From IMG/VR virus record IMGVR_UViG_2671180903_000016, positions 1 to 21,640 of that record: DNA of 21,640 nt. One strand, written 5' to 3'. Both the position numbers and the translations under genes were made by a program. The DNA is from a virus (Duplodnaviria; Heunggongvirae; Uroviricota; Caudoviricetes). This document shows positions 6,457-19,701 of this stretch, one piece after another. Every line of letters starts with the position of its first letter. The stretch's first letter is position 1. Under the pieces are notes generated by a model. It saw only the letters and a list, made by a program, of their open reading frames with translations, was not told where the DNA came from and made no database searches.

Positions 6457-6589
6457 TCTTTGGGACTCCTGGCTGATTAAGTATGTCGATAAGGCGTTTC
6501 CATCCGTCACGTAATTTACGGGTGATTCGTTCAAGTAAAGATTCGGAAGGGCAGCCAGCAACAGGCCACCCTGCAATGGCATATTGCAT
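6425..6589 (-). CDS. cIII: CIII, FtsH (HflB) inhibitor (54 aa)
   Basis: [54 protein letters not shown] matches lambda CIII; AAGGAG RBS; overlaps the kil start as in lambda. Confidence 0.85.
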   Translation of the reverse strand: MQYAIAGWPVAGCPSESLLERITRKLRDGWKRLIDILNQPGVPKNGSNTYGYPD

Positions 6590-6661
6590 GGTGTGCTCCT
6601 TATTTATACATAACGAAAAACGCCTCGAGTGAAGCGTTATTGGTATGCGGTAAAGCCGCAC

Positions 6662-7030
6662 TCAGGCGGCCTTGATAGTCATATCATCTGAATCAAATAT
6701 TCCTGATGTATCGATATCGGTAATTCTTATTCCTTCGCTACCATCCATTGAAGGCCATCCTTCCTGACCATTTCCATCATTCCAGTCGAACTCACACACA
6801 ACACCATATGCATTTAAGTCGCTTGAAATTGCTATAAGCAGAGCATGTTGCGCCAGCATGATTAATACAGCATTTAATACAGAGCCGTGTTTATTGAGTC
6901 GGTATTCAGAGTCTGACCAGAAATTATTAATCTGGTGAAGTTTTTCCTCTGTCATTACGTCATGGTCGATTTCAATTTCTATTGATGCTTTCCAGTCGTA
7001 ATCAATGATGTATTTTTTGATGTTTGACAT
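6662..7030 (-). CDS. ea10: Ea10-like protein (122 aa)
   Basis: Translation matches lambda Ea10 as recalled (MSNIKKYIIDYDWKASIEIEIDHDVMTEEK...). Confidence 0.85.
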   Translation of the reverse strand: MSNIKKYIIDYDWKASIEIEIDHDVMTEEKLHQINNFWSDSEYRLNKHGSVLNAVLIMLAQHALLIAISSDLNAYGVVCEFDWNDGNGQEGWPSMDGSEGIRITDIDTSGIFDSDDMTIKAA

Positions 7031-7049
7031 CTGTTCATATCCTCACAGA

Positions 7050-7076
7050 TAAAAAATCGCCCTCACATTGGAGGGC
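7050..7076 (-). terminator. Rho-independent terminator-like hairpin (tL-type) between the 156-aa ORF and ea10
   Basis: On the minus strand GCCCTC-caatgt-GAGGGC followed by GATTTTTTAT; expected to be read through by N-modified polymerase. Confidence 0.5.
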
Positions 7077-7180
7077 AAAGAAGATTTCCAATAATCAGAA
7101 CAAGTCGGCTCCTGTTTAGTTACGAGCGACATTGCTCCGTGTATTCACTCGTTGGAATGAATACACAGTGCTTATTCGTA

Positions 7181-7651
7181 CTAATAAAATACCCAATTTT
7201 CTGTTTCTTGGTTGTGTCCAAAGTTATATTCAATATCTGGTGTTGATGTATCAATATTCTTCATACCATCAACAAGAGTTGATACAACAGCCAAATCTTG
7301 TTTGATTCTCATTAAATGGTATTTCTTCCGGCGCAATAAACTTTCAATGGCAAGTTTCTTCGTTGGGAATGCAAAAGATCTTTCTGCATTTTTTGCTACT
7401 TTCTTAATTGCATATCTATTTCTCCTTTGTTTCCATTCCTGTAACCACTGATTTGGTGCTGGTTTAAAATTAACAATCCAATGCGCAGGAACCAACCATG
7501 CATAATGCTCTGTCTGATGAAAAGCTATATATTGAAGTGCGAATATTTTTATCCCATCTTCTTCAACTGTCGCCTGGAATCTCCAGAAAACAGGCATTCC
7601 ATCATGTTCAGTTTCTGATTCAGGAAAAGGTACGCTCCATGATTTTGTCAT
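7181..7651 (-). CDS. Hypothetical protein (156 aa) in the ral/sieB slot
   Basis: ORF with GAGGTGAG RBS, downstream of N on the pL transcript; surrounding DNA looks AT-rich by eye; no family recognised. Confidence 0.6.
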   Translation of the reverse strand: MTKSWSVPFPESETEHDGMPVFWRFQATVEEDGIKIFALQYIAFHQTEHYAWLVPAHWIVNFKPAPNQWLQEWKQRRNRYAIKKVAKNAERSFAFPTKKLAIESLLRRKKYHLMRIKQDLAVVSTLVDGMKNIDTSTPDIEYNFGHNQETENWVFY

Positions 7652-7709
7652 ATCTCACCTCAAATAAGTGGTTTGCTGCCTAATTTCATTTTCTGGCGAC
7701 CAACACAAG

Positions 7710-8093
7710 TCACCTCGCCGTCAGTTGTTTTGATTTCCGGTAGCCTGCCGCGTAAATGGCTACGTTTGGAAGACATACACCAGTTTCTGGTTGCTTATGT
7801 CCAAACTCATTCGCGTACACAATGGCCGCTCGCTCCAGATTGCGTCTGTATTCTTTCTGTTGCCAGATCACGTCCTGTGCCATGAACTTAATTGGCTTAG
7901 CGTCTTCTATGCGCTCAGGCGTTTCGTGAGTACCTTTAGCCTGAATCTGCGCTCTGCTTAGAGTAGGGCGGTGTAATACTTCTGAACTTATTGCTTCTTC
8001 GCGGGCCAGTACGCCGTTAGCTAATGCCTTTGCCTTTAAACGCTCACGACGACGAGAACGTGAATTGCCTTTGAACTGAGTTCTGCGTGTCAT
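7710..8093 (-). CDS. N: Antitermination protein N (H-19B/933W type), 127 aa
   Basis: Arginine-rich N-terminal motif (RRTQFKGNSRSRRRERLKAK); first gene downstream of the nutL-like hairpin; strong CAGGAGG RBS; resembles Stx-phage N as recalled. Confidence 0.75.
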   Translation of the reverse strand: MTRRTQFKGNSRSRRRERLKAKALANGVLAREEAISSEVLHRPTLSRAQIQAKGTHETPERIEDAKPIKFMAQDVIWQQKEYRRNLERAAIVYANEFGHKQPETGVCLPNVAIYAAGYRKSKQLTAR

Positions 8094-8258
8094 ATAGACC
8101 TCCTGATGAACTTTGGTGGTGTGGTAGGTGGGAGACCCATTTCGACCTGTTTCGGCCTACTTCAATTCGGCAATAGTCCCGCAGGCCTCGCCGCTTTACG
8201 TGCGACATATTCCCGTCCATGAACCCTTCACCACACCCCAAAGTTCACTTTGGTTATT

Positions 8259-8273
8259 GCGCTTTGTCAGCGC
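8259..8273 (-). promoter_or_regulatory. nutL boxB-like hairpin (GCGCU-GACAA-AGCGC on the leftward transcript)
   Basis: 5-bp stem with 5-nt GACAA loop about 170 nt upstream of the N start; same loop as the hairpin downstream of cro. Confidence 0.5.
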
Positions 8274-8339
8274 CGTAGATTCATATTCGAATCGTTGTAT
8301 ATTTACCGCCCTGGTGAGTAATGCGTCCTGCTGATGGGT

Positions 8340-8400
8340 GAGCTTTATCGGAATGATAAATTAATGGCAATAGCAAAATGATAAATTCTCTTGGTTTTCA
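8340..8400 (-). promoter_or_regulatory. Putative oL/pL region with two direct AATGATAAATT repeats
   Basis: AATGATAAATT at 8352-8362 and 8377-8387; the same TGATAAAT motif recurs in the cI-cro intergenic region. Confidence 0.45.
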
Positions 8401-8559
8401 AATATCGTATTGATTCTTATGGTGTTTTATTTTGTTGTAGGAATTCGACAGGATAAATAAAGAGATTTGAGGGAGATCTGGATTGCGTTGTTTAGCAAGT
8501 TGTATCTATTTATTTTTCAACAAATACAATTGGTTATGTGTTTTTAGGTGTGGGATCGT

Positions 8560-8592
8560 GAGGCAAAGAAAACCCGGCGCTGAGGCCGGGTT
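8560..8592 (-). terminator. Rho-independent terminator ending the cI-cassette operon
   Basis: Minus strand: AACCCGGC-ctcagc-GCCGGGTT followed by TTCTTTG, directly after the stop of the 206-aa gene. Confidence 0.6.
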
Positions 8593-8598
8593 AATGCG

Positions 8599-9219
8599 TT
8601 AATGCTGGGGAGTGATTTTTTTGTTGTCTGTTGGCTGGGTATTTTGTGGCGGCGCTTGCAAAGTGGAAGGCTGTTGCAAAGGTGCGTGGTCTGACTTTAA
8701 AGCTGATACCAGCCCGGGAATCGCAACTATTACAGCGATAATGACACTAAAAATGGCTAATCGTATAGAAATACCCGACTGAACACCACTAATTGCGGTA
8801 TTAACCCCTGTTATTTGTCCTTGAATTCCTTCGAATCTCCCATTAATTGCTTTTATATCGCCAGCAGCGCTATCCATCTTTCCATCGATCTTGGACGATA
8901 GAGAGCTTATGGCTGCATTAAGTGATGCAAATTGGACATTAACGCTTTCACGAGATAGAGCCATGTCAGCCCTAATGGAAGAAGCAATAGACTCCATCTC
9001 TGCTTTATTAGCAGCTAAGCGAGCATCAAGTTCCTCTCTGCTGATCGTTCCCACTTCTTCCTCCGTTTGTGGCGGTTTTATGTAATTATTTTGCACCTTG
9101 GTGGGAGAATTATCAAATTCAGCCTCAAAATCGGAACCGCCAACAACCTTCAACCTCCGGCTTTCAGATATGTTGGTGTCTTGCTTTCCATGATTATTTA
9201 AATTACTGTCGTCACTCAT
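8599..9219 (-). CDS. Hypothetical membrane-anchored protein (206 aa); cassette gene C
   Basis: ATGA overlap with the upstream gene; N-terminal polar region, central helical region with heptad-like spacing, one hydrophobic segment (IRLAIFSVIIAVIVAIPGLVSAL) and a Pro/Gln-rich tail. Confidence 0.7.
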   Translation of the reverse strand: MSDDSNLNNHGKQDTNISESRRLKVVGGSDFEAEFDNSPTKVQNNYIKPPQTEEEVGTISREELDARLAANKAEMESIASSIRADMALSRESVNVQFASLNAAISSLSSKIDGKMDSAAGDIKAINGRFEGIQGQITGVNTAISGVQSGISIRLAIFSVIIAVIVAIPGLVSALKSDHAPLQQPSTLQAPPQNTQPTDNKKITPQH

Positions 9220-9650
9220 AATAGCTCTACGGTGAAAAATGATTCATTTTTATGAAGTTCATTTTTAGGGTCTTCATTATCTTGCAATATCCCTATAACA
9301 CTATACAGCCCTTTAGCTGGGACCCTAATTTCTTTCAATGTTACTATTACCTGTCCGCCAACCCCTGTTTCAAAATGGCTATCTTTCGTATCGATGAAAA
9401 GTGAAACTGATTCCGAAGAGCCGTCAGGGAATTGAATTTCCTCACCTTTTTTTATAATTAGGTGCGCGGGGATTACCATAATACCCAAATTATATCTTGA
9501 ATTTGGTTTCAACCCGATCATACCAACCCTGAAATCAATTGATAGCCGCGCAGGAAATTCATTGCATGTAAAATTAAGCGTCGGTTGGTTGGGTTCTTCG
9601 CTGCTATCAAATGGGGTTATAAAAGATATTCTTTCTAAATTAAGTGCCAT
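9216..9650 (-). CDS. Hypothetical protein (144 aa from the ATG at 9650; track ORF extends to 9704); cassette gene B
   Basis: Strong RBS GCAGGAGAATTT before the ATG at 9650; the stop overlaps the gene C start; no recognisable motif. Confidence 0.65.
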   Translation of the reverse strand: MALNLERISFITPFDSSEEPNQPTLNFTCNEFPARLSIDFRVGMIGLKPNSRYNLGIMVIPAHLIIKKGEEIQFPDGSSESVSLFIDTKDSHFETGVGGQVIVTLKEIRVPAKGLYSVIGILQDNEDPKNELHKNESFFTVELL

Positions 9651-9720
9651 AAATTCTCCTGCATCGCTGTATGCTCTACGAGCATCTCTGCGATCATCCA
9701 TCATCCAAACGTCTCTTCAC

Positions 9721-10062
9721 TCATCCGAAGAAGCAGCAATCCGGGTCAGCACGCACAAGCTCAAGCGCATCAGTCAGCGAAAGTTCAGTACTGTACTGAT
9801 GCCATTTCATATCCTTCCGCATCCAATAGATTTTCCATCTATCCAGAGAACGTATGTACTTGATTCTTGCTGATGGCAGGATGTTTGTTTCACCTGGGTT
9901 GCCCTGCCACACGGGGCGCTGTTCGCCGATATCTATCGTTTGGTCATTGATGCTATAAACAATATCCAGTTCATTGCGGATATGTTCAGGCGGCCTTATG
10001 CTTTCAATGAATTGGTGAACTTCTTTTTTGACCGCTTGATATTCAAGGTCAGTGAACGCCAT
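9721..10062 (-). CDS. Hypothetical protein (113 aa); cassette gene A, immediately downstream of cI
   Basis: Strong RBS GAGGAGG 5 nt before the ATG; same strand as cI, 60 nt after its stop; family not confidently recognised. Confidence 0.7.
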   Translation of the reverse strand: MAFTDLEYQAVKKEVHQFIESIRPPEHIRNELDIVYSINDQTIDIGEQRPVWQGNPGETNILPSARIKYIRSLDRWKIYWMRKDMKWHQYSTELSLTDALELVRADPDCCFFG

Positions 10063-10122
10063 CTATCCTCCTCACCCAAACGTTTCTTCTGGCCACTGGT
10101 TACCAGCTATGTGACGATGAAG

Positions 10123-10827
10123 TCACGAACTTTTCAGCCACTCCCTTGCCTCGATGTCATCCAGATGGCGAGATTGCTTCAGAATACCAGCTACATACTC
10201 CACCTTTGCTACTTGATGATAAGGCAACGTTATAGGCCTGTGATCCTGGTTAATGCTTGTAAATTGGTATTCTCCATCTCTGTCATAGCCAAGAACCTTA
10301 ATCATGTTGTGTCCTTCAACGGTTCTGACAAACACCTCGTCACCCGGGAATACTTTGGTGTTAGGCTCAATGAGTACATATTCTCCTGATTTTATTCTGG
10401 GCCACATGCTGTCTCCTTTCACACGAAGACCAAAGGCATCTGGATCATCGCTATAAATTTTGAGCCACCCATCGCGCTCTTCGGTCATCTCGATGGCACC
10501 ATCAACACCAAGAATTGCCTCACCAACCACGCGCACTAACCCTTTTCTTACCTGACCGACAAAAGTTAAAGAATCTGAGCATGATGCAATTGGTGTTACA
10601 TCATGTACCAAATCAAGCCACCCATTAGGTAACCCAAGCGCGGCTTCAAATTTTCTTGCTAGTTTATCCCCTATGTTTCGAGTGCTTTTTTCACCGGAGA
10701 CTTGCGTGAGTTGAGAAGGGCTAACCCCAAGCTTATCGGCAAAGCTTGCATTAGTGTTACCCGCGATTTTTTTATGCTCATCTAGCAAAAACGCCAGATT
10801 CGATTTGCGAATATCTTTGTTTTCCAT
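10123..10827 (-). CDS. cI: CI-type prophage repressor (HTH N-terminus, LexA/S24-like C-terminus), 234 aa
   Basis: N-terminal HTH region and a C-terminal GDSMWP motif with a downstream Lys, typical of autocleaving S24 repressors; divergent from the cro-like gene across an operator-rich gap. Confidence 0.85.
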   Translation of the reverse strand: MENKDIRKSNLAFLLDEHKKIAGNTNASFADKLGVSPSQLTQVSGEKSTRNIGDKLARKFEAALGLPNGWLDLVHDVTPIASCSDSLTFVGQVRKGLVRVVGEAILGVDGAIEMTEERDGWLKIYSDDPDAFGLRVKGDSMWPRIKSGEYVLIEPNTKVFPGDEVFVRTVEGHNMIKVLGYDRDGEYQFTSINQDHRPITLPYHQVAKVEYVAGILKQSRHLDDIEAREWLKSS

Positions 10828-10940
10828 CTCACAATTTTCCCTCTATTTAGCAAATGGATAAATACGCAATATGATAAATTTACATTGCGGATGATTTATC
10901 AAAATGGTAAAGTTGTTCTGTGTGATAAACGGAGGCACTA
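10828..10940. promoter_or_regulatory. oR/pRM/pR divergent control region
   Basis: 113-bp gap between divergent cI and cro with repeated TGATAAAT-like half-sites (10853-10863, 10871-10880, inverted at 10894-10901, 10921-10930). Confidence 0.6.
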
Positions 10941-15616: not shown

Positions 15617-15708
15617 TTGACGCGATGATTTATTCGGGGCTATATTCCTCACGCGCCAGCAAAATCTGGCGTCGGGATTAGCACCCCGGATGTTTACGGA
15701 GCGATATG

Positions 15709-15729
15709 AGACGCGCCCGCGTCTTTTTT
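15709..15729 (+). terminator. Terminator-like hairpin after ninE
   Basis: AGACGC-gccc-GCGTCT followed by TTTTTT. Confidence 0.5.
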
Positions 15730-15875
15730 CATATCGTTTGCACAGTCACATTCGCGATTTATGGCGGGCTGTGTGGGGGAGCTGAAAGGCTCGCCGGTTT
15801 CCGTACCCGGTAGTGCTAACCCCGCACAGTTCGCCACCATGATGATTAGCACCTGACGGTGGCGATAATGTCCAA

Positions 15876-19059: not shown

Positions 19060-19135
19060 GGCCCTTTAGCTCAGTGGTGAGAGCGAGCGACTCATAATCG
19101 CCAGGTCGCTGGTTCAAATCCAGCAAGGGCCACCA
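19060..19135 (+). tRNA. ileZ: tRNA-Ile2-like (anticodon CAU)
   Basis: Hand-folded cloverleaf: acceptor GGCCCTT/AAGGGCC, anticodon loop CTCATAA, T-loop TTCAAAT, 3' CCA; close to E. coli tRNA-Ile2 as recalled. Confidence 0.85.
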
Positions 19136-19144
19136 TATCACATA

Positions 19145-19221
19145 CCGCCATTAGCTCATCAGGACAGAGCGCCAGCCTTCGAAGCTGGTTGCGCGGGGTT
19201 CGGGTCCCCGGTGGCGGTCCA
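19145..19221 (+). tRNA. tRNA-Arg-like (anticodon UCG by hand fold), atypical
   Basis: Cloverleaf with perfect anticodon stem CCAGC/GCTGG and loop CTTCGAA; unusual C1-G72 pair and T-loop TTCGGGT. Confidence 0.55.
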
Positions 19222-19234
19222 TTATCGGTATTCT

Positions 19235-19311
19235 GCGTTGTTAGCTCAGCCGGACAGAGCAATTGCCTTCTAAGCAATCGGTCACTGGTTCGAATCCAGT
19301 ACAACGCGCCA
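19235..19311 (+). tRNA. tRNA-Arg (anticodon UCU)
   Basis: Acceptor GCGTTGT/ACAACGC, anticodon stem ATTGC/GCAAT, loop CTTCTAA, T-loop TTCGAAT, 3' CCA. Confidence 0.85.
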
Positions 19312-19550
19312 CACTTATTTTCCCTGGCTCGCTTTTGCGGGCCTTTTTTTTAAATGTCTCACAATTCAGGCGGTTGACTGTTGTCTGGTTTGCGGGGAGT
19401 TTGTTAAAAGAAACTGGCATGGTGAATCCCCCTGTGCGGAGGGGCAATCAGCAACCAGGTATATGTGATAATCGCGGATTCAGGTGCTGATACTGAATTC
19501 ACCGGGAGGCACCCGGCACCATGCAAGAAAAAGAATGTGCATGCAAACAT

Positions 19551-19574
19551 GCCCCTCTCCGGAGGGGCTTTTTT
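19551..19574 (+). terminator. Rho-independent terminator between the tRNA cluster and the esterase gene
   Basis: GCCCCTC-tccg-GAGGGGC followed by TTTTTT. Confidence 0.7.
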
Positions 19575-19701
19575 ATGGGTAAAAAATGCCCGAATGGGTT
19601 CGGGCAATAGCATGAGATACTGATATTGTTGTGTTGTTATCGTGTGGATTTTAACCAGGGTTTATCAGGCTGCGCAACTGCGTGGCCTTTTTTCATTTCT
19701 T

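Follow-up and report, generated by a model that had tools for sequence, protein, structure and literature searches.

We suggest that the interval between the cI repressor gene and the left operator oL, in the 21,640-nucleotide viral stretch analysed here (IMG/VR virus record IMGVR_UViG_2671180903_000016; hereafter the window), forms the accessory portion of the repressor operon in a lambdoid E. coli prophage and carries two stacked cargo modules in the rexAB slot: a single gene, A, and a translationally coupled gene pair, B-C. On this reading, to which we give a probability of about 0.5, the modules would be expressed in the lysogen and act in exclusion or abortive infection, with B providing specificity and C acting as the membrane effector. 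Prophage exclusion genes (RexAB, Stk, Hex) are classically found in the cI-to-oL slot, and it is from this position only that an anti-phage function of A and of B-C appears most likely; the same hotspot position is also compatible with cargo that has no role in defence, for example genes for a Hex-like control of induction. RexAB of lambda, Stk of 933W and Hex of 434, all encoded in this slot, are transcribed together with cI and exclude other phages (PMC3564112). The locus described below adds sequence-level evidence that cargo of the slot can be exchanged and stacked.

On the minus strand the order is cI, A, B, C and a terminator, followed by oL, in agreement with the rexAB slot between cI and oL/pL to which an earlier note on this DNA had assigned the block. 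The cI gene (10123..10827, minus strand, 234 aa), coding for a protein with HTH and S24 LexA-like peptidase domains (Pfam Peptidase_S24, E 3.8e-16), is the first gene of a putative pRM operon. The three ORFs of 113, 144 and 206 aa reported after it on the same strand are all present: A at 9721..10062, B at 9216..9650 and C at 8599..9219. So are the signals reported with them, a GAGGAGG ribosome-binding site for A, AGGAGA ahead of the 144-aa start of B, an ATGA overlap of the B stop and C start, and a hairpin past C. This hairpin (8592-8571, minus strand; 8-bp stem with six G-C pairs, then TTCTTTG) lies 7 nt past the C stop as an intrinsic, Timm-equivalent terminator at the end of the putative cI-A-B-C unit. 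No other terminator-like site was found on the minus strand from cI to oL, and the identical sequence in phage HK542 is annotated there as Timm. Intergenic gaps along cI-A-B-C are short. As the stretch from cI to C is free of terminators and a Timm-like terminator follows C, co-transcription of A, B and C with cI is plausible, and the three genes are probably expressed in the lysogen.

The operator-like repeats that had been noticed on both sides of the block were recovered at oL (8348..8387, upstream of N), with two copies of TGATAAAT at 8354 and 8379, and at oR (10850..10913, in the cI/cro interval; repeat family D1), with copies at 10872 and 10894. In total the window holds five matches to TGATAAAT against 0.91 expected, and five or more were seen in 0 of 100 shuffles; a 15-nt repeat family has three copies at oR and two at oL. 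An AT-richness of the block relative to its flanks, judged by eye in the note, holds for B (37.5% GC) but not for C (43.3%) or A (45.9%), compared with 44.7% in cI, 49.2% in N and 47.6% in the window. A, B and C are real genes, since all three match PHROG families (phrog_3467, phrog_5893 and phrog_5820, respectively; E 1e-50 to 1e-77) and their homologues show dN of 0.24–0.64, with synonymous sites saturated or dN/dS of ~0.16.

The distribution of the genes contradicts the earlier view of the block as one three-gene cassette. Among 5426 complete E. coli genomes, A was found in 227, B-C in 51 and all three genes in 19; ~208 of the 227 genomes with A have no B-C, and ~32 of the 51 with B-C have no A. 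Phages HK542 and HK244 have B-C, 98% identical, behind a lambda-immunity cI and without A, and genome H39 combines a cI like that of the window with B-C, again without A. Stx phages, whose cI matches in its C-terminal half, carry A together with a RuvC-like gene, Stk and a small ORF, and are without B-C. In strain RM9088 a lambda-type cI is followed by A, B and C, so the trio occurs behind at least two cI types. Because A and B-C are found apart far more often than together, and recombination boundaries lie between them, we conclude from the comparison of these sequences that they are separate mobile units. That A, B and C form a single integrated defence system with C as its effector is very improbable. 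Their adjacency on one strand with no terminator in between, and the recurrence of the trio in 19 complete genomes behind more than one type of repressor, would agree with such a system, but they have to be set against the mutual independence of the modules in most E. coli genomes and in HK542 and HK244, against distant homologues of A (in Erwinia, Rahnella, Yersinia and on plasmids of other phyla) that are without B-C and distant B-C loci that are without A, and against the boundary repeats that bracket A on its own.

These boundaries retain traces of a lambda-type cI. A first relic (10069..10098, minus strand), between the cI stop and the ribosome-binding site of A, is a non-coding copy of the last lambda-type cI codons (CAGTGGCCAGAAGAAACGTTTGGGTGA, reading QWPEETFG followed by a stop) and has 90% identity across 30 nt to the genuine 3' end of the HK542 cI gene. 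A second relic, coinciding with a crossover zone (9682..9719, minus strand) common to HK542 and Stx2 phage 86, contains another partial copy of the cI 3' end (TGAAGAGACGTTTGGATGA). An 18-nt direct repeat (D2; 9701-9718 and 10072-10089), both copies of which match the lambda cI 3' end, brackets A. Homology to HK542 stops at 9719 and homology to Stx2 phage 86 starts at 9682; further on, 98% identity to the cI of Stx2-converting phage 86 is seen at 10123-10576. At the other end, the left boundary segment (8473..8593), common to HK542-type and Stx2-86-type immunity regions, represents a second crossover zone. The B-C cargo (8594-9681) is therefore flanked by two segments common to both parental types, which points to a cassette exchange, and B-C exactly replaces in the window the ~1.7 kb of RuvC-like gene, Stk and small ORF of Stx2 phage 86. 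We suggest that both modules were gained by recombination at short conserved boundary sequences, with the Timm region as the left boundary and the lambda-type cI 3' relic as the right one.

For B we use the start MALNLERIS (144 aa). The start chosen by RefSeq PGAP, an ATG at 9704 giving 162 aa, was rejected, as the extension falls inside the boundary relic and is missing where the lambda cI ends 50 nt upstream (HK542 and locus L015), and the homologues all begin at MA.N.ERI. A structure model of moderate confidence (pLDDT 68, from 7 sequences) predicts B to be a soluble, generic Ig-like beta-sandwich of no known family. Neither B nor 17 members of its family matched anything in Pfam, NCBIfam or PADLOC, and a B profile run against 1.84 billion representatives returned ~15 full-length relatives of 140-153 aa; long repetitive proteins that were also returned are regarded as noise.

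C is a predicted tail-anchored membrane protein with a variable N-terminus (residues 1-55), a heptad coiled coil (~56-150), a transmembrane (TM) helix (~152-176) and a 30-aa P/Q-rich tail predicted to be periplasmic. The coiled coil, which is backed by its heptad register and by 7-residue indels in the family alignment, is predicted to be cytoplasmic and runs directly into the single TM helix; this helix has a Kyte-Doolittle 19-residue maximum of 2.71 at residues 154-174 and bears out the suggestion that C is a membrane protein. Searches of Pfam, NCBIfam and PADLOC with C and 19 members of its family gave only sub-threshold coiled-coil matches (Baculo_PEP_C, SlaB, MakE, LmuB, ZorA, JetC). Some C homologues scored E 7e-4 to 1e-3, below gathering thresholds, against CCDC90-like/DUF1640 and Baculo_PEP_C models, whose coiled coil and C-terminal TM architecture resembles that of C, and these weak scores probably reflect coiled-coil composition. 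No PADLOC 2.0 defence model matched B or C beyond such coiled-coil noise, and neither protein shows the signature of an enzyme or a pore former. Searches of the PDB with sequences and profiles of A, B and C gave nothing significant, the best entries being estrogen receptor, RuvB-like, sigma-1, HA2 and SmhB, all at E >0.02; the weak matches to SmhB and to MakE (an alpha pore-forming toxin) were not taken as homology. The Pfam, PADLOC and NCBIfam scans agree with the earlier statement that none of the three proteins is RexA, RexB or Stk. Its further remark that none belongs to a nameable family stands for B and C but not for A, which is DUF3024 and PDC-S43; the Pfam and PADLOC profile searches that it had proposed matched A, and gave nothing for B and only sub-threshold scores for C.

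GenBank entries of phages HK542 and HK244 have listed B-C as hypothetical genes since 2007. Literature searches found neither the WP accessions nor the HK542 locus tags, with HK542 mentioned only as a test phage, and found no expression or experimental data on A, B or C. B-C is a neat candidate of two genes for which no relative could be detected among the defence proteins described so far, and since HK542 is culturable, it is directly testable in a lambda-immunity background in which rexAB is naturally replaced.

Both B and C are present in 49 of the 51 E. coli copies, and a small gene precedes C in every homologue examined, the C family as a whole comprising roughly 30 clusters. The combination of C with a small soluble partner, the ORFs overlapping or close, was seen in the window and at loci L003, L007, L009, L020, L021/L022, L023 and L029, the contexts coming from Citrobacter, Cedecea, Pectobacterium, Yersinia, Salmonella, Enterobacter and E. 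coli. A prophage repressor gene stands immediately upstream of the pair in 7 of the 8 contexts that were examined, and in the eighth (L021, Yersinia) the pair has a tail-end cargo position. The repressors ahead of it are of several unrelated types: S24 cI-like proteins of 231-250 aa and HTH-only proteins of 131-155 aa. An N-terminal motif of C, L[KR]V[VI][GA]G[ST][DG]F, was found at 3/3 loci with a B-family partner and 0/4 with another partner (7 loci), and it tracks the B family even where the remaining part of C differs. The partners in Yersinia (97 aa), Pectobacterium (99 aa) and Enterobacter (120 aa) were considered as diverged forms of B and rejected by hhalign; for the 149-aa partner in Salmonella the hhalign probability against B is 11%, which is marginal.

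Under the two-module reading, cI, A, B and C would be transcribed from pRM in the lysogen up to Timm, and B would dock onto the N-terminal 50 residues of C as a specificity or sensor subunit. Infection by another phage would change the state of the B-C complex, after which C, oligomerised via its coiled coil, would either compromise the membrane, as in a Rex-like abortive infection, or block genome entry; A would work separately from B-C. Four of four damaged E. coli copies carry their lesion in C and have B intact: two are IS1 insertions (one inspected, L019) and two are deletions (one inspected, L020, in-frame), and together they probably represent two independent events. With all four lesions in C and B intact, this pattern fits a role of C as the costly effector. 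It is possible, though we consider it rather doubtful, that B-C is the first example of a so far unnoticed family of membrane exclusion systems in enterobacterial prophages, which would be linked to a repressor and have two components, and in which a conserved tail-anchored C effector is armed by interchangeable small sensors (either of the B family or, at 97-149 aa, unrelated to it) docking on a matching N-terminal peptide of C, and in which these modules and the DUF3024 gene are stacked and swapped behind cI at cI 3' relics. If B were an exchangeable sensor of a common membrane effector, the pair would offer a compact model of how specificity evolves in prophage defence.

HK97 gp15, lactococcal Sie2009 and T4 Imm are small membrane proteins that block entry of phage DNA, and B-C could likewise be a superinfection exclusion rather than an abortive infection system, with the tail or TM helix of C hindering DNA entry and the cell surviving. 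Known prophage blockers are small membrane proteins, C is a predicted inner-membrane protein encoded in an immunity operon, and a QPIIIQVPQ motif just past its TM helix, predicted to be periplasmic, is kept in most C homologues. Yet in C of the window this motif has degenerated to QPSTLQAPPQ, the cytoplasmic portion is predicted to take up ~150 of the 206 residues and to contain the best conserved part, and a cytoplasmic partner of its own and an N-terminus specific to that partner would be unexpected in a simple blocker. A, B and C have no Pfam, PHROG-annotated or PADLOC match to SieB, Sie2009, Imm, HK97 gp15 or any other Sie family, and we regard an entry block as quite unlikely.

There are several parallels between B-C and RexAB. 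B-C follows cI and precedes Timm and oL, is presumably transcribed from pRM together with cI, consists of a gene for a soluble protein followed by one for a membrane protein, and takes the place of rexAB behind the lambda-type cI of HK542 and HK244. The proteins themselves differ: B and C have no sequence similarity to RexAB in Pfam, PADLOC or NCBIfam (in Pfam C gave only sub-threshold coiled-coil matches, E up to 0.1), RexB is a polytopic channel subunit with four TM helices, switched on by a cytoplasmic sensor to cause depolarisation, whereas C is tail-anchored with one TM helix and a long coiled coil, and RexA has ~279 aa compared with the predicted 144-aa beta-sandwich of B. Hex of phage 434, reported to act in heterologous exclusion and to protect the repressor from RecA (PMC3564112), is likewise an accessory gene of a pRM-cI operon, but, compared by description, it is very small and partly overlaps cI. 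One or both modules might be no anti-phage cargo, but tune the prophage's own lysogeny, as Hex does against RecA-stimulated repressor cleavage, alter the physiology of the host or act as an addiction pair that keeps the prophage stable; we think this unlikely, though not strikingly so.

Gene A matches Pfam DUF3024 over its full length (E 2.4e-31, 108.7 bits, cut-off 24.9) and the PADLOC candidate PDC-S43 (E 7.2e-42, covering 1-113 of 115), and is, as far as its sequence can tell, a small, soluble, stand-alone protein with no catalytic signature. PDC-S43 is one of 145 explicitly untested candidate systems and was nominated because it occurs inside BREX, DISARM or type I R-M loci (bioRxiv 10.1101/2024.01.29.577857); A resembles it as a full-length match and single-gene unit, but sits in a prophage immunity operon. 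The name PDC-S43 was not found as text in the supplements of that preprint, and no mention of DUF3024 was found in the literature. In E. coli the usual genes downstream of A are the RuvC-like gene and Stk of Stx phages, and many Stx phages of pathogenic E. coli are now seen to have PDC-S43 in their repressor operon. The window shares with the 933W/Stx2-phage operon the C-terminal half of cI, the cI 3' relic and gene A (98% nucleotide identity), but is missing the stk block of Stx2 phage 86, and A, B and C are without a Pkinase match. Passages of PMC3564112 describe stk of 933W as co-transcribed with cI (citing Tyler et al. 2004) and Stk as an HK97-excluding abortive-infection kinase (citing Tyler 2004 and Friedman 2011). 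Expression of A in Stx-phage lysogens can be inferred from this co-transcription: if the gene order of 933W is that of Stx2 phage 86, in which stk lies downstream of A, then A should also be transcribed in 933W.

A conserved partner of DUF3024 in distant taxa was considered and rejected, the upstream genes being mutually unrelated. On plasmids of Azonexus, Polaromonas and Bradyrhizobium the genes upstream of DUF3024 (a weak DUF6155 match, a TPMT methyltransferase and a protein of no family) appeared coupled to it.

The window is lambdoid prophage DNA from E. coli, and near-identical sequence is carried by 10 complete E. coli chromosomes (99.9% over 8400-10200). Read along the minus strand, its immunity region runs from the oR operators through cI (10123-10827), A (9721-10062, 113 aa), B (9216-9650, 144 aa), C (8599-9219, 206 aa), an intrinsic terminator (8592-8571) and the oL operators (8348-8387) to N (7710-8093). 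The signals that had first drawn attention to three genes behind cI are in place: a GAGGAGG ribosome-binding site ahead of A, AGGAGA ahead of the 144-aa start of B, an ATGA overlap of the B stop and C start, a hairpin plus T-run 7 nt beyond the C stop, and operator-like TGATAAAT repeats flanking the block on both sides (5 in the window vs 0.9 expected). The AT-richness suspected by eye holds for B only (37.5% GC), and not for C (43.3%) or A (45.9%; cI, 44.7%). All three ORFs match PHROG families (E 1e-50 to 1e-77) and show dN of 0.24-0.64 against diverged homologues, with synonymous sites saturated or dN/dS of ~0.16; judged by this conservation, they are genuine genes. Homologues and lambda-cI contexts back the 144-aa start of B at 9650, while the 162-aa RefSeq PGAP model, whose extension (9651-9704) starts at an ATG inside a boundary relic, has no support from HK542, the lambda-cI contexts or any homologue.

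The earlier note treated A, B and C as one cassette, whereas DNA comparison separates the region into two units, A and B-C. B-C, its terminator and 70 nt upstream share 98% identity with the immunity regions of phages HK542 and HK244, where the pair directly follows a lambda-type cI, taking the position of rexAB, with no A, and where the records annotate its terminator as Timm. A and the adjoining half of cI match Stx-converting phages, Stx2 phage 86 among them, at 98% identity; in these, B-C is missing and A leads into a RuvC-like gene, stk and a small ORF. Of 5426 complete E. coli genomes, 227 carry A and 51 carry B-C, the latter always in single copy and with both genes present in 49 of the 51. 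A true three-gene system would accommodate the 19 genomes carrying the whole trio, as well as strain RM9088, where a lambda-type cI is followed by a 9-nt gap, A and then B-C; it sits poorly with H39, where the window's cI is followed by B-C and A is absent, and with the occurrence of B-C alone behind lambda-type cI or behind another S24 repressor. We regard the structural description of the locus, and its division into two modules, as highly secure.

The junctions suggest how the two cargoes were combined. The last codons of lambda-type cI, CAGTGGCCTGAAGAGACGTTTGGGTGA (QWPEETFG and stop), were read in three settings: as the true cI end in HK542; between the window's cI stop and the A ribosome-binding site, where positions 10069-10098 are a non-coding relic; and just past the A stop, as a partial second copy at 9701-9719. 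A repeat finder independently paired 9701-9718 with 10072-10089 (18 nt, 89% identical, 371 nt apart), and A is thus bracketed by two relic copies of the cI 3' end. In local BLAST the window matched Stx2 phage 86 over 7600-8593 and 9682-10576, and HK542 over 8473-9719; these breakpoints leave the B-C cargo (8594-9681) flanked by two segments common to both parental types, the Timm region (8473-8593) and the relic zone (9682-9719). Such segments are the footprint to be expected of homologous exchange at conserved linker sequences, which accounts for the stacking of two cargoes. At the cI end itself (10069-10140), the repressor terminates in YVAGILKQSRHLDDIEAREWLKSS and stop, and an unused lambda-type C-terminus (AGNQWPEETFG and stop) follows thirty nt further on, after a repeated GCTGGTA. 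It looks as if ~70 nt had been inserted or substituted, so that the repressor gained a different C-terminal tail while the original was left behind as a non-coding remnant; this arrangement is shared by Stx2 phage 86.

In all contexts examined, the C homologue is directly preceded by a small gene, often overlapping. The pair is directly downstream of a prophage repressor in 7/8 contexts, and the repressor types are unrelated: Rac-like HTH in Citrobacter (155 aa), HTH in Pectobacterium (138 aa) and Salmonella (131 aa), S24 cI in Cedecea (231 aa), Yersinia (237 aa) and Enterobacter (250 aa), and another S24 repressor in E. coli 90-3040. In the eighth, the Yersinia pair recurs as tail-end cargo by dinI. 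In Citrobacter and Cedecea, as in the window, the partner belongs to the B family; elsewhere it is unrelated to B (97, 99 or 120 aa) or marginally related (149 aa). The motif L[KR]V[VI][GA]G[ST][DG]F near the C N-terminus is present in 3/3 proteins with a B-family partner and 0/4 with other partners. Because this motif tracks the B family, we infer that B may dock on the N-terminal peptide of C, the partner supplying specificity to a common membrane module.

The N-terminus of C (residues 1-55) is variable. It is followed by a conserved heptad region (about 56-150), in which every seventh position is hydrophobic, glycines recur and homologues differ by whole-heptad insertions and deletions, and then by a single strongly hydrophobic helix (about 152-176) and a P/Q-rich tail of 30 residues, which contains QPIIIQVPQ in most homologues. 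The helix bears out the earlier view of C as a membrane protein. C lacks a signal peptide and shows a slight positive-inside bias, from which the simplest prediction is a tail-anchored, N-in/C-out inner-membrane protein. Sequence and profile searches with C returned below-threshold matches only, mostly to coiled coils (trimeric viral fibres, SMC-like arms, ZorA tails). The C-type protein of the Citrobacter locus (L003, 5429-5998) keeps the window-type N-terminus, including the motif, although its coiled coil, its transmembrane helix and its tail, an (AP)n repeat, all differ; this shows domain shuffling within the family. Four E. coli copies of B-C are damaged, two by IS1 insertion and two by deletion, probably reflecting two independent events only. 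One copy of each kind was inspected: C is truncated after about residue 120 in the IS1 copy (L019, NZ_CP063473.1) and has lost residues 13-113 in frame in the deletion copy (L020, NZ_CP027459.1). B is intact in both, which fits C as the costly component.

None of the three genes had been placed in a nameable family; for A this no longer stands, as it is a full-length match to Pfam DUF3024 (E 2.4e-31) and to PADLOC model PDC-S43 (E 7.2e-42), and by these profiles belongs to an established family of uncharacterised proteins. PDC-S43 is among 145 defence candidates nominated via embedding in BREX, DISARM or type I R-M loci (bioRxiv 10.1101/2024.01.29.577857). Invariant residues of A cluster at the termini (N-terminal MAF.D.E, C-terminal CF[FW]G), alongside a W..YW.R....W strand, and no catalytic motif is apparent among the conserved residues. 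An Erwinia aphidicola locus (L011, 4001-6130) carries a DUF3024 gene, a 153-aa protein, a Stk-like kinase and a small ORF. This is the block of the Stx phages, located behind cI there and at the prophage tail end by dinI in Erwinia, with 59% identity in A. Possibly A sometimes works with a kinase module, though it also occurs alone, as in Rahnella. It lies within an island by smpB in Yersinia ruckeri, and is preceded by unrelated genes on plasmids of Beta- and Alphaproteobacteria and Actinobacteria; these varied contexts point to a stand-alone accessory gene.

B-C has no annotation in any library searched; its genes entered the databases as hypothetical with the 2007 immunity-region records of HK542 and HK244. 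Its closest analogue by proposed function and position is RexAB, but it falls outside RexAB by both sequence and membrane topology. Lysogens express the genes of the rexAB slot from pRM, and these genes exclude other phages, as RexAB, Stk and Hex do (PMC3564112). That source, citing Tyler et al. 2004, describes 933W stk as sharing a transcript with cI. Stx2 phage 86 has stk downstream of A; if 933W has this order too, A would be transcribed there too. The B-C unit combines an operon-like layout up to Timm, B/C translational coupling, modular mobility, repressor linkage and a membrane anchor, and we put the probability of an anti-phage role at roughly 0.55. We suggest that B-C may be a two-component exclusion or abortive-infection system, in which B would sense an infection cue and C, oligomerised through its coiled coil, would perturb the membrane or block entry, with A acting independently; this division into sensor and effector is distinctly tentative. 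The membrane anchor would also suit B-C as an entry blocker, for which the accompanying small gene is less readily accommodated, and its position in a slot that also houses Hex would be compatible with a less likely Hex-like or addiction function. Since the cI-to-oL hotspot is where specialists would anticipate unknown exclusion genes, the surprise is moderate; the value lies in a clean, testable candidate in a culturable phage, the partner-swapping pattern and the explicit recombination scars.

Elsewhere in the window, two more uncharacterised pL-operon genes lie between N and cIII (6662-7651) in an AT-rich segment (36-40% GC), encoding a DUF2528 protein (6662-7030; E 2e-47, phrog_646) and a 156-aa protein (7181-7651; phrog_1636, no Pfam match). 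This segment also varies among related prophages, others having ral plus another ORF in its place. On the minus strand, 6544-6602 holds a lambda cIII thermoregulator RNA element (Rfam RF01804, 88.5 bits). The nin/late-regulatory region contains a P1/P7-type antisense immunity element (15640-15841, plus strand), with c4-a1b1, isrK and C4 antisense RNA in tandem (Rfam, 49.8-75.7 bits, all above gathering). From 19060 to the window end, the layout is the one that surrounds stx in Stx phages: three tRNAs (Met-CAT, Arg-TCG, Arg-TCT) followed by the sRNA STnc100 (149.9 bits), with the anti-GcvB sRNA AgvB (96.5 bits) on the opposite strand, occupy 19060-19642 and closely precede a 616-aa ORF (19790 to the window end) annotated as a SASA-family esterase in an almost identical genome. 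The stx genes themselves would not fit into this block, so the prophage is apparently stx-negative.
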